Positions 3,116 through 11,268 of a stretch of 13,914 nucleotides of DNA are shown piece by piece (position 1 is the stretch's first letter; each line of letters begins with the position of its first letter). The notes beneath the pieces were generated by a model. The model was given only the letters and a program-made list of their open reading frames with translations. It did no database searches and was not told the DNA's origin. The DNA is from a virus (lineage: Duplodnaviria; Heunggongvirae; Uroviricota; Caudoviricetes): positions 1 through 13,914 of the IMG/VR virus record IMGVR_UViG_2698536392_000012. One strand, given 5' to 3'. Made by a program: the position numbers and the translations under genes.

Positions 3116-3592
3116 TTACATATAAAAATCGAACGACATCTGTTGTGTTCTCACGCCAATTGTTTCCAGTACGATATCCGCAAATGTATCTGCCTGCCAT
3201 TCTGCATCCTCAATACGAGTAGGTTCTTTAACTGAAAAGTGTAAAACTGCTTTGTGTCCAAGAAGCAAATGACCTAGCTCGTGGAAGATAACAGCAAGTG
3301 CATGCTCTTCCCCAAGGCAAGCATTCACATATATTTTATTGGGAACCGTAATTGTTAGAGAAGCGGGGTCACAATGTCCGATAGTTAGATCATACGTCAG
3401 AGCCTCCCACTCTTTGTCGGTCCTGACGTCAAGAGTAACCCCATAAATTGACAGGCTTTCAAAGAACATATCATAACGCTTTCTTTTGCGCTTTGAGGCT
3501 GTAAGACCAATAGCATTACAGAAGTTTATAGCTCTGTAGGCTATTTCTTCTTCTTGCATCGGTGACACCCTGTTACCTCTCATTTGATACAT
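3116..3592 (-). CDS. ImmA/IrrE-family (COG2856) Zn metallopeptidase
   Basis: 158 aa with HELGHLLLGH (HEXXH) and a downstream EDAEWQADTFA motif, the usual third zinc-ligand region of ImmA/IrrE peptidases. Strong SD (GAGGGG) inside the 3' end of the upstream HTH gene; 2-nt intergenic gap. Confidence 0.7.
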   Translation of the reverse strand: MYQMRGNRVSPMQEEEIAYRAINFCNAIGLTASKRKRKRYDMFFESLSIYGVTLDVRTDKEWEALTYDLTIGHCDPASLTITVPNKIYVNACLGEEHALAVIFHELGHLLLGHKAVLHFSVKEPTRIEDAEWQADTFADIVLETIGVRTQQMSFDFYM

Positions 3593-3594
3593 AA

Positions 3595-3954
3595 TTACCC
3601 CTCATTGTTATTAATCTTTTGCAATAAATCTGCAAAACTCTTTAGCTGTTCCGGCGTAAACTGCGACTTAGCGAATCCCGCTACAAGCATTTTCTGTTGC
3701 TGAGACAAACCGTTTACTGGAACTGAGTCATTCGCAACTGCCGCTAACTCCTGTAACCCTTCAATTTCTACACCTTTGGCCTTGAAGTAAGAATCAATCT
3801 TCTTAACCCACTTCAGAGGTATTTTTTTGCTACCAGTTTCTAAACCGCTAAGAAACGCTGGCGTAGTGCCCAGTTCTTGAGACATAGTCAGAAGAGTACT
3901 GTCAGTATCGATCCTCGCTTTTCTAACGGCCTTACCGAATTCAGTGAGTGCCAT
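3595..3954 (-). CDS. XRE-family helix-turn-helix transcriptional regulator (ImmR-like partner of ImmA)
   Basis: 119 aa. N-terminal HTH (LLTMSQELGTTPAFLSGLETG). SD GAGGA 8 nt upstream of the ATG, with an AT-rich promoter-like region further upstream. Confidence 0.75.
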   Translation of the reverse strand: MALTEFGKAVRKARIDTDSTLLTMSQELGTTPAFLSGLETGSKKIPLKWVKKIDSYFKAKGVEIEGLQELAAVANDSVPVNGLSQQQKMLVAGFAKSQFTPEQLKSFADLLQKINNNEG

Positions 3955-4130: not shown

Positions 4131-4198
4131 AAGTGCGGGTGCGTTGAGGATGCCTGACACATCAGAGGTGGCGAGGGATTTCTCCCCCGCCAGGTCTC

Positions 4199-4354
4199 TT
4201 ACTCCTCAGGTTCGTAAGCTGTGAAGACAGCGACCTCCGTCTGGCCGGTTCGGATTCGTACCTCGCAGAGGTCTTTCCTCGTTACCAGTGCCGTCACTAT
4301 GACGGTTAAACAGATGACGATCAGGGCGATTAACATCGCCTTTTGCTGCTTCAT
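4199..4354 (-). CDS. hokD: Hok/Gef-family type I toxin (HokD/RelF-like)
   Basis: 51 aa MKQQKAMLIALIVICLTVIVTALVTRKDLCEVRIRTGQTEVAVFTAYEPEE, recognised from recall as HokD/RelF-like. SD AAGGAG 9 nt upstream. The ORF-track in-frame upstream extension (to 4411) is probably not used. Confidence 0.85.
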   Translation of the reverse strand: MKQQKAMLIALIVICLTVIVTALVTRKDLCEVRIRTGQTEVAVFTAYEPEE

Positions 4355-4598
4355 AGCCTGCTTCTCCTTGCCTTTCGGCACGTAAGAGGCTAGCCTACAT
4401 GTGCAAGTCATAGATATGGCCTCAGATTAATGTTAAGCGTCTTGCCGGACGCGTAATGTTAACTGGGGCTTTTCTCTGTCTGCCTTACGGCGGCATGCCC
4501 GAGGCAGACAGCCTCAAGCACCCGCAGCAATTCTACTTAACTCTCGCTTTACAGCAAACCGTTTTTGCCCGATATGGGAATTCCCATACGGAATGAAT

Positions 4599-4703
4599 TC
4601 AGTTCCCCAGGCGATCCATCAAAAACACAACCAGGCAGTAAACACCCACAACAGCAATAACAGCCAGAGCGCCTTCCATTACCAGTGAAATATCATCCGA
4701 CAT
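4599..4703 (-). CDS. Small hydrophobic peptide (34 aa), candidate small membrane protein or type I toxin-like ORF
   Basis: MSDDISLVMEGALAVIAVVGVYCLVVFLMDRLGN: acidic N-terminus plus one predicted TM helix. Very strong SD (AAGGGAGGG) 3-4 nt before the ATG, and promoter-like hexamers upstream. Not in the ORF track because it is under 60 aa. Confidence 0.35.
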   Translation of the reverse strand: MSDDISLVMEGALAVIAVVGVYCLVVFLMDRLGN

Positions 4704-8754: not shown

Positions 8755-9255
8755 ATGAAAAGAAAACCCCTGTCAGAGATCGACCTGCAAGCCGCCCAGA
8801 GACTGAAAGAAATCTGGACGACGAAAAAAACTCAACTTGGGTTAACCCAAGAGCGTGCGGCAGAAATTCTGGGTTTTTCGACACAAGGGGCAGTAAGCCA
8901 TTATCTAAATGGTCAGACACCTTTAAATCTAGAGGCTGTTATCAAGTTCGCTGGGTTGCTACAAGTTCCGCCTGAGTCAATTAGACCAGATATGGCAGAC
9001 TTGTTACGAATTGTAAGGATGTACCCCCAAGAACTGCAGCAGGATAATGTTGTCGCTTTACCCGCAGAGATGGAGCAATCGGAAAACGAACTTCCGTTTA
9101 ATATAGAACCTATAGAGCGAGATTTGATCCAGACGTTCAGGGCTTTCCCAAAAGAAGACAAAGAGAAAATGCTTAAGGAAATGAAGGAGAAAAAAGAATC
9201 AATTGAAGAAACCGTTGCGCGGTGGCTAGAGGCGCAAAAAGGTCGTCGCGCCTAA
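8755..9255 (+). CDS. DicA/CI-like HTH repressor, probably a PaaR-type regulator of the downstream toxin-antitoxin pair
   Basis: 166 aa with N-terminal XRE HTH (LGLTQERAAEILGFSTQGAVSHYLNG) and no S24 peptidase domain. C-terminal helical region similar in style to DicA. Followed 17 nt later by the paaA-parE-like genes on the same strand. Confidence 0.7.
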   Translation: MKRKPLSEIDLQAAQRLKEIWTTKKTQLGLTQERAAEILGFSTQGAVSHYLNGQTPLNLEAVIKFAGLLQVPPESIRPDMADLLRIVRMYPQELQQDNVVALPAEMEQSENELPFNIEPIERDLIQTFRAFPKEDKEKMLKEMKEKKESIEETVARWLEAQKGRRA

Positions 9256-9272: not shown

Positions 9273-9464
9273 ATGAGTACAGTCCTTTCCCCGATAATTT
9301 CAGAATTTGAAACAATCGAACAAGAAAACAGCTATAACGAATGGTTACGCACCAAAGTGGCAGCAAGCCTCGCAGACCCCCGTCCTGCAATTCCGCATGA
9401 CGAAGTAATGGCTGAAATGGAAAACCTTATTGCGCAAATAGCTTCGACGAACAGGAGTGAGTAA
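9273..9464 (+). CDS. PaaA-like antitoxin (ParE-associated antitoxin)
   Basis: 63 aa. The core SEFETIEQENSYNEWLR...SLADPRPAIPHDEV resembles PaaA2 of E. coli O157 prophages from recall. Strong SD (GGAGG). Its stop overlaps the toxin start (TAATG). Confidence 0.7.
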   Translation: MSTVLSPIISEFETIEQENSYNEWLRTKVAASLADPRPAIPHDEVMAEMENLIAQIASTNRSE

Positions 9465-9754
9465 TGCTGCCCATTTTATGGCTACCTTCTGCGCGTGATG
9501 ATTTGCGTCAGATCGTAGCCTATATTGCCAAGGAAAACCCTCCCGCTGCACGTAGACTAAAAATACGCATTGAAACATCAGTTTTGTCACTTTCTGAACA
9601 TCCTTACCTGTATCCACCAAGCGAAAGAGCTCTAGGCCTTCGTGAGATAGTGACCCATCCTAACTACATAATACTTTACCGAGTAACAGCATCTAACATC
9701 GAGATCGTAAATGTAGTTCACTCACGAAGGCAGTATCCAAACAAAAGCTGTTAA
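9464..9754 (+). CDS. parE: ParE/RelE-superfamily toxin
   Basis: 96 aa with the typical ParE pattern (W.P.A..DL..I..YIA..NP.AA, REIV, NIEIVNVVHSRR). Translationally coupled to the upstream antitoxin. Confidence 0.8.
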   Translation: MLPILWLPSARDDLRQIVAYIAKENPPAARRLKIRIETSVLSLSEHPYLYPPSERALGLREIVTHPNYIILYRVTASNIEIVNVVHSRRQYPNKSC

Positions 9755-11210: not shown

Positions 11211-11268
11211 TTCTGGTGACATTTGGCGGTATCAGTTTTACTCCGTGACTGCTCTGCCGCCCTTTTTT
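11211..11268 (+). ncRNA. dicF: DicF small regulatory RNA (ftsZ-targeting sRNA of Qin-type prophages)
   Basis: TTCTGGTGACATTTGGCGGTATCAGTTTTACTCCGTGACTGCTCTGCCGCCCTTTTTT matches the recalled E. coli DicF sequence nearly base for base, including the GGCGG/CCGCC terminator stem and T-run. Sits immediately upstream of dicB. Confidence 0.8.

Follow-up and report, generated by a model that had tools for sequence, protein, structure and literature searches.

A Predicted Complete hok/mok/sok Cassette of the hokD/hokW Lineage in a Lambdoid Prophage of Escherichia coli

The 13,914-nt stretch of the virus record IMGVR_UViG_2698536392_000012 that was analyzed in this study, referred to here as the window, encodes on its minus strand a 51-residue toxin of the Hok/Gef family. 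Its counterpart in Escherichia coli K-12, hokD (relF) of the Qin prophage, is expressed as the third gene of relBEF. The locus in the window raises the question of whether hok is an orphan toxin gene that depends on upstream transcription or part of a self-regulated type I toxin-antitoxin system, and whether an inverted repeat in its leader belongs to such a system. We consider it very probable that positions 4558-4103 form a complete, autonomous, and functional hok/mok/sok type I cassette that works as in plasmid R1 and in the Stx2 phage Sp5. The cassette represents the hokD/hokW lineage in its intact form and is located in the early-right operon of a lambdoid E. coli prophage; elements of this kind are already known, and the setting is the usual one.

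The toxin gene has the following position in the window.

4354-4199, minus strand: hok toxin gene, 51 aa (MKQQKAMLIALIVICLTVIVTALVTRKDLCEVRIRTGQTEVAVFTAYEPEE), with the Shine-Dalgarno (SD) sequence AGGAG at 4368-4364

The product is a small membrane toxin of the Hok/Gef family, in the size range of about 50 aa, and matches Pfam PF01848 (HOK_GEF) with an E value of 2.9e-23 and a score of 81.6 bits, as compared with a cut-off of 22. An earlier note on this DNA, made from the sequence alone, had assigned the open reading frame (ORF) to this family at the same position, and the Pfam match bears it out. The NCBIfam models for Hok subfamilies also match the protein, but under their strict cut-offs. 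In alignment, K-12 HokD is the same protein with the same coding sequence, and RefSeq gives the name HokD to the product in a genome that is 100% identical to the window. HokD, with a sequence identical to that of the window toxin, has been used as a toxic positive control in published work. As stated in the introduction of a recent preprint (bioRxiv 10.1101/2025.08.07.668861), A-to-I editing of hokD mRNA by TadA recodes Tyr to Cys. The codon for Tyr47 in the window is UAC followed by G (4213-4216, minus strand), the same UACG context as in K-12 hokD, and this layer of control would apply to the window hok too.

The hok leader is 169 nt in length and contains the inverted repeat, of 9 bp. It was matched by Rfam family RF01794 at positions 4523-4349 on the minus strand, with a score of 111.1 bits (E = 4.6e-25) over all 157 model positions, as compared with a gathering score of 59 bits. 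Reference loci score 118 (K-12 hokC), 110 (K-12 hokB), 113.5 (hokW of VT2-Sakai), and 115 (mEp460), and a search of K-12 Qin gave no match to RF01794 at the truncated hokD. The family, which is named "sok antitoxin," lies on the hok-sense strand and extends from the 5' GGGUGCUUGAGG to the hok AUG. In K-12, its matches fall on the strand of hokC and hokB, opposite the annotated sokC and sokB; therefore, RF01794 is a model of the hok mRNA leader, and the real Sok RNA is encoded on the opposite strand. In sequence and in structure, the leader in the window thus conforms to what this model describes for hok mRNA. The elements of the mRNA, with the names tac, ucb, and fbi used for R1 hok/sok (PMC9841398), are located as listed below in 5' to 3' order; values of nucleotide diversity (pi), here and below, refer to a comparison of 90 unique hokD/W-type cassettes from IMG/VR and genome contigs.

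4558-4530, minus strand: predicted hok promoter, with -35 TTTGCT at 4558-4553, a 17-nt spacer, and -10 TAGAAT at 4535-4530
Near G4523-G4525, minus strand: hok transcription start, placed from the sequence
4523-4512, minus strand: tac (translational activator), GGGUGCUUGAGG, at the 5' end of the mRNA and the first positions of RF01794; pi = 0.000
4511-4476, minus strand: inverted repeat, the apical hairpin of the tac stem-loop, with arms CTGTCTGCC (4511-4503) and GGCAGACAG (4484-4476)
Within 4511-4476, minus strand: hairpin loop of 18 nt, containing GGCATGCC at 4499-4492
4474-4465, minus strand: ucb or anti-SD box, GAAAAGCCCC, seen in ViennaRNA folds and in the Rfam consensus structure; pi = 0.014
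4191-4170, minus strand: 3'-untranslated region (3'-UTR) hairpin, GGCGGGGGAGAAAUCCCUCGCC, seen in ViennaRNA folds
4149-4134, minus strand: fbi (fold-back inhibitory) element, CCUCAACGCACCCGCA, complementary to the 5' end of the mRNA
4130-4103, minus strand: intrinsic terminator of the hok mRNA, with the stem at 4130-4113 and the T-tract at 4112-4103, where the conserved cassette ends

A repeat search widens the inverted repeat to arms of 21 nt (4465-4485 and 4502-4522). Mononucleotide shuffles of the window yield ~1.3 perfect 9-bp repeats with short loops, so that a single one is unremarkable, and its significance rests on homology and covariation. Structures were compared by using MAFFT alignments, RNAalifold, and explicit pair counting in 77 Hok loci taken from species-representative genomes, of which 34 distinct leaders were used for pairing. 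The tac stem and hairpin are 93% paired in these leaders, as compared with 44-57% for slid partners; six pairs are altered on both sides, and none of 500 shuffles reaches any of five measures. The third pair of the inverted repeat is U-A, A-U, G-U, or G-C in the homologues and G-C in the window. Among the 90 close cassettes, the forms CTATCTG...CAGATAG and CTGTCTG...CAGACAG covary, with a few G-U or A-C intermediates. By these alignments, the inverted-repeat hairpin is a conserved part of the toxin mRNA. The hairpin loop and the GGCATGCC palindrome are not conserved among the relatives: GGCATGCC is restricted to the G-C subgroup, and most cassettes, including hokW, have GGCATGAA. Because it is found only in this subgroup, the palindrome is incidental. 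The repeat around a palindrome at 4476-4511, from which the earlier note had suggested a structured leader, is present, as are all of the features that it placed. The region that was delineated there is too narrow, since the unit extends from 4558 (hok -35) to 4103 (end of the T-tract).

The leader contains a second reading frame and, on the opposite strand, an antisense gene.

4411-4199, minus strand: mok-like ORF of 70 codons, with ATG at 4411-4409 and SD GAGG at 4423-4420, in frame with hok and sharing its stop codon
4368-4396, plus strand: predicted sok promoter, with -35 TTGCCT at 4368-4373, a 17-nt spacer, and -10 TAGCCT at 4391-4396
4403-4479, plus strand: predicted Sok RNA of ~75-77 nt, with a 16-nt tail (4403-4418) and a terminator hairpin (4419-4469) followed by UUUUCUCU

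The layout of mok is that of the annotated mokC/hokC of K-12. In most homologous loci, a mok-like ORF of ~68-71 codons follows a GAGG, in frame with hok or in the +2 frame, and overlaps hok with an SD of its own, as in the window. The tail of Sok (4403-4418) is complementary to the mok start region, and the promoter region of sok aligns with those of K-12 sokC and sokB and of the validated sokW; its -35 is invariant (pi = 0.000). The ends of Sok were set by alignment to the annotated K-12 sokC, with the start near G4403, and are uncertain by a few nucleotides. The predicted fold of 4403-4479 has an energy of -31.8 kcal/mol, and the overlapping stretch 4395-4470 has an energy of -29.6 kcal/mol (z = -4.3). 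Whether a sok-type antisense RNA and a mok-like coupling frame are present had been left undecided in the first reading of this DNA; at the level of sequence both are found, mok as 70 in-frame codons behind its own GAGG and sok as a cis-encoded antisense gene across the mok start whose promoter, tail, and terminator align with those of sokC, sokB, and sokW. The -10 sequence TAGCCT is synonymous with TAACCT in the overlapping mok frame (CTA versus TTA, both Leu).

The predicted folds of the mRNA include two alternative states of its 5' end. The tac and fbi elements are complementary at 9 of 9 positions, and over 13 nt, across a distance of 375 nt in the repeat search; the duplex has an energy of -21.5 kcal/mol, and it lies 49 nt past the stop codon, as compared with 46-58 nt in nearly all homologous loci. 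The pairing is compensatory between lineages, GGGUGC occurring with GCACCC and GGCGC with GCGCC. In the minimum free energy (MFE) fold of the full-length 420-nt mRNA (-181.8 kcal/mol, z = -7.8), tac is paired with fbi and ucb with the region of the mok SD, a predicted long-range closure of the 5' and 3' ends. When the RNA was ended at 4165 or 4168, so that fbi was gone, the MFE fold changed to one with the tac/ucb stem, as in the Rfam consensus, and, in this stem, the inverted-repeat hairpin forms the tip (ViennaRNA). Folding of the leader and alignment to hok/sok covariance models had been proposed in the earlier note as checks on the locus, with a conserved fold-back structure set against simple co-transcription; such a structure exists, in that the tac/fbi pairing is predicted and is kept by compensatory change, and the score of RF01794 is well above its gathering score.

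These features can be accommodated in the closed-to-open mechanism described for R1 hok/sok (PMC9841398). In such a mechanism, the weak promoter would produce a hok mRNA of ~420 nt in which tac (4523-4512) would pair with fbi (4149-4134) and ucb would hide the mok SD; because of these pairings, the closed full-length RNA would be neither translated nor bound by Sok. Slow 3' trimming would remove fbi, and the hairpin at 4191-4170 probably protects, as in R1 (PMC9841398), the 3' end of the mRNA left by this processing. The tac element would then pair with ucb, closing the stem tipped by the inverted repeat and freeing the mok SD and start, and translation of mok would drive that of hok. The unstable plus-strand Sok RNA (~4403-4479) would bind first, with its 16-nt tail over the mok start, so that translation would be blocked and the duplex cleaved. 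If sok transcription were to stop, through loss of the element, shut-off, or prophage induction, Sok would decay first, and Hok would kill or permeabilize the cell. Transcription of both RNAs, 3' processing, coupling of mok and hok, instability of Sok, toxicity, and role are taken in this scheme by analogy with the related systems, and likely roles on the same grounds would be to accelerate lysis on induction, as hokW does, and/or to kill cells that lose the prophage.

The relationship with K-12 hokD accounts for the different appearance of the two loci. From window position 4368, at the hok SD, to ~4110, a region that includes the coding sequence, 3'-UTR, fbi, and terminator, K-12 differs by two mismatches. 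Upstream of 4368, the 3' end of relE occupies the place of the leader in K-12, which, unlike the window, therefore has no tac, hairpin, ucb, mok start, sok, or sok promoter; fbi is retained and is now partnerless. The window has the full leader and diverges from K-12 above 4368, and therefore does not have a relBE-hokD operon of the K-12 type. In the window, hok is directly preceded by a 34-aa hydrophobic ORF and a DUF551-type pseudogene, and relBE is not present there, in agreement with the earlier description of a HokD-like toxin without the K-12 relBE context. Among 5426 complete E. coli genomes, copies with the leader are present in 4284, and the relE-hokD junction is present in 1173; the former count was obtained with leader plus hok start as the query at at least 80% query coverage and includes hokW- and hokC-type leaders at at least 80% identity. 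Because relE sequence replaces the leader, K-12 hokD is a 5'-truncated, derived copy, and the state without relBE is by these comparisons the common and ancestral one. The earlier description was right about the K-12 arrangement, but it is K-12 that is the derived form. The two prophages are otherwise alike in being lambdoid and of DicF/DicB type, with hok located upstream of the DUF968 and Q genes.

Several observations weigh against the view that the cassette is functional. A generic scan for sigma-70 consensus promoters picked up neither the hok nor the sok promoter, both of which are below its threshold, because the matches at -35 or -10 are poor (in hok, the -35 is weak); the placement of these promoters rests on homology instead. 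The sok -10 sequence TAGCCT is found in one of the 90 unique cassettes, the others having TAACCT except for a few divergent copies that are gapped there. The inner sokT hairpin is a poor fit to the Rfam consensus, with mismatch marks. When the mRNA was shortened to 4160, it gave another 5' fold and not the tac/ucb stem, so that the prediction depends on the 3' end that is chosen. A metastable 5' hairpin, in which tac pairs with 4504-4491 by using the GGCATGCC motif, appears in folds of the leader only; in the 34 leaders, its inner six pairs are conserved but none is altered on both sides, and we regard it as a possibility, not a finding. In addition, chromosomal hok loci tested earlier gave no post-segregational killing, according to work cited in bioRxiv 10.1101/2025.08.07.668861.

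The most probable of the other explanations is that the cassette looks intact but is a functionally silent relic, like several chromosomal hok loci, either because the hok promoter is too weak or because some element is too altered for Hok ever to be made. The subthreshold promoters and the rare sok -10 variant, present in a single cassette, are consistent with this. However, no element is missing or disrupted, unlike the situation in K-12 hokD, and tac, ucb, the mok SD, the sok -35, and the hok SD are invariant or nearly so in the 90 cassettes, which indicates purifying selection. Identical or nearly identical copies are present in hundreds of genomes, and the closest relative that has been studied, hokW-sokW, is active (PMC8621323). 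A cell with a live hok but a dead sok would not survive, and a weakened sok should therefore be selected against; a relic with a sok weakened by TAGCCT would count only if a compensating defect in hok had kept the host alive. We consider a silent relic to be unlikely.

It is much less probable still that hok lacks regulation of its own and is co-transcribed with upstream prophage genes, as in relBE-hokD of K-12, with the leader hairpin being incidental or the terminator of an upstream gene. The gene does run with the early-right operon, so that read-through is likely during induction, and the consensus scanner called no promoters. In opposition to this, the leader matches the hok leader model over its full length and with a high score, and it is exactly this leader that the K-12 arrangement lacks. 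In the 90 cassettes, conservation extends from near the hok -10 to the terminator, with unrelated flanks, and TAGAAT remains at a fixed distance from the GCGGGT of the conserved 5' end despite the unrelated upstream DNA; this conserved block and fixed distance argue for an autonomous unit with its own promoter and not simple co-transcription. Also, the tac/fbi pairing requires a defined 5' end, and the hairpin, which has no U-run after it, shows the covariation of an RNA helix. That the inverted repeat and GGCATGCC act as DNA, as an operator bound by protein or a recombination site, is scarcely credible, since, although both motifs are palindromic and another perfect 16-bp palindrome is close by at 4573-4588, the stem shows compensatory changes and tolerates intermediates with G-U, as is characteristic of paired RNA, and belongs to the covariance-model match, and GGCATGCC is missing from most relatives.

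The reading of 4558-4103 as a complete cassette is in keeping with its similarity to characterized systems. The closest is hokW-mokW-sokW of the Stx2 phage Sp5 (VT2-Sakai; also 933W) of E. coli O157:H7, with ~92% nucleotide identity over the cassette. It is of the same lineage, is similarly located in a lambdoid prophage, and encodes a toxin of the same length, 51 aa. The two loci have the same tac, ucb, SD, and fbi sequences and share the architecture of the leader, including, relative to K-12 hokC and hokB, an insertion of ~18-20 nt in the Sok terminator hairpin. They differ in the C terminus of Hok (TAYEPEE in the window, VDYESEK in HokW), in the 16-nt Sok-tail/target allele (CAUAUCUAUGACUUGC in the window, UCAAUCCAUGCUGAAC in hokW), in the third hairpin pair (G-C in the window, A-U in hokW), in the hairpin loop (GGCAUGCC in the window, GGCAUGAA in hokW), in the sok -10 (TAGCCT in the window, TAACCT in hokW), and in the terminator past fbi. 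The hokW-sokW locus of Sakai prophage 5 is a validated type I toxin-antitoxin pair in which HokW is toxic and is neutralized by sokW expressed from its own promoter; mutation of the sokW -10 TAACCT (primers YO-421/422) abolished antitoxin activity and protection (PMC8621323). On treatment with mitomycin C, sokW is lost and HokW is made in a RecA-dependent manner, and deletion of the locus halves phage release, the pair helping release on induction (PMC8621323). We suggest tentatively that interference by read-through from the early-right promoter, which runs against the sok promoter, could explain the RecA-dependent loss of sokW reported for Sp5.

The hok/mok/sok (parB) system of plasmid R1 is more distant, with 41% protein identity between the toxins, and is plasmid-borne with a demonstrated role in post-segregational killing. 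In the window, mok is in frame with hok, but in loci of the R1 type it uses the +2 frame and stops 4 nt short of the hok stop codon; tac/fbi is GGCGC/GCGCC in R1 and GGGUGC/GCACCC in the window. The hairpin loop of R1 is longer, and its Sok RNA, of 64 nt, is shorter. The two loci have the same elements in the same order, namely a weak hok promoter, tac, the hairpin, ucb, and the mok SD and ORF, and are alike in the Sok antisense RNA across the mok start, in fbi at ~50 nt past the stop, and in the 3' hairpin (PMC9841398). K-12 hokC/mokC/sokC (gef) has 82% protein identity, a mok in frame with hok, and a leader that aligns throughout. It is located in the chromosomal backbone, not in a prophage, with a copy of IS186 (IS186A) directly downstream, and has a shorter Sok, of 59 nt, and a G-U third pair in the hairpin. 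According to a survey from 2025-26, Hok occurs in ~80% of Enterobacteriaceae genomes and is enriched in prophages (bioRxiv 10.1101/2025.08.07.668861). Some Hok loci in our collection are titled Veillonella, Acinetobacter, Xanthomonas, Streptomyces, Ferruginibacter, Oscillibacter, Dysgonomonas, Vagococcus, or metagenome-assembled genomes; because they are mostly on short contigs with sequence similar to that of E. coli or R1, they are probably the result of contamination or mis-binning.

A lambdoid prophage of E. coli 2013C-4830 matches the window with 100% identity. Its genes occur in the order exonuclease, DicB and DicF, cI-like repressor, cro-like gene, YdaT, replication genes, and hok, followed by genes for a helix-turn-helix (HTH) protein and an ImmA/IrrE protein, DUF968, RusA, and the Q antiterminator, and hok has the orientation of the early-right (replication to Q) operon. 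The small RNA DicF was found at 11211-11262 on the plus strand (Rfam RF00039, 77 bits), and dicB is annotated beside it in the identical genome, which places the prophage in the Qin/DicF type. The 34-aa hydrophobic ORF (MSDDISLVMEGALAVIAVVGVYCLVVFLMDRLGN; strong SD, GGGAGGG) immediately precedes the hok promoter, at 4599-4703 on the minus strand; it is annotated as hypothetical in RefSeq and has no match in Pfam, PHROG, NCBIfam, or PADLOC. When the flanking ORFs were searched against defence-system, PHROG, and NCBIfam models, no function emerged for it or for a 277-aa ORF. The perfect 16-bp palindrome at 4573-4588 (TATGGGAATTCCCATA), which has no spacer, is 15 bp upstream of the hok -35, outside the conserved cassette, and is absent in VT2-Sakai. 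It holds an EcoRI site, with two further GAATTC sites within 140 bp, and is not an obvious terminator, as no U-run follows it. Directly downstream of the hok terminator, at 3116-3954 on the minus strand, are the genes for the HTH protein (119 aa) and the ImmA/IrrE metallopeptidase (158 aa), which have weak PADLOC matches of the CapH/CapP-like and RmrA-like kinds and could be a pair of repressor and protease that senses damage. Positions 9273-9754 on the plus strand, opposite to hok and directly after the cI-like repressor gene (8755-9255), encode an antitoxin of the RelB family (63 aa; NF050103, 92 bits) and a toxin resembling RelE/StbE (96 aa). This pair was considered as a route to the relBE-hokD fusion of K-12 and was rejected, since it has no BLASTP similarity to K-12 RelB/RelE.

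The most variable stretch of the cassette is the predicted target of the Sok tail at 4418-4403, with a pi value of 0.344 as compared with 0.142 for the hairpin loop and 0.033 for the third codon positions of hok, relative to which it is ~10-fold more diverse. It has 17 alleles in the 90 unique cassettes, and pairs of cassettes that are 1-2% different elsewhere differ at 25% of its sites. In two genomes, co-resident copies of the cassette have unlike alleles. We suggest, as a tentative proposal somewhat short of an even chance, that this 16-nt target, which covers the mok start, may determine specificity and diversify rapidly; relaxed constraint together with recombination may also account for its diversity. 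The Sok of R1 is reported not to be replaced by chromosomal Sok RNAs (PMC9841398). A description of this hotspot was not found in the literature that was searched. If the proposal is correct, several prophage copies of hok/sok would coexist in one cell, with no Sok silencing another hok, and each prophage would keep its own addiction or lysis switch.

The identification of the cassette raises no new question about the hok/sok mechanism, and its value is mainly for annotation. RefSeq labels only HokD at this locus, and with neither mok nor the antitoxin RNA annotated it reads as an orphan toxin. The reference arrangement in K-12 misleads about the typical form of hokD. An intact cassette, as predicted from its sequence, would mean that the prophage carries a self-regulated killer module of the kind that, in the closest relative studied, speeds lysis on induction.

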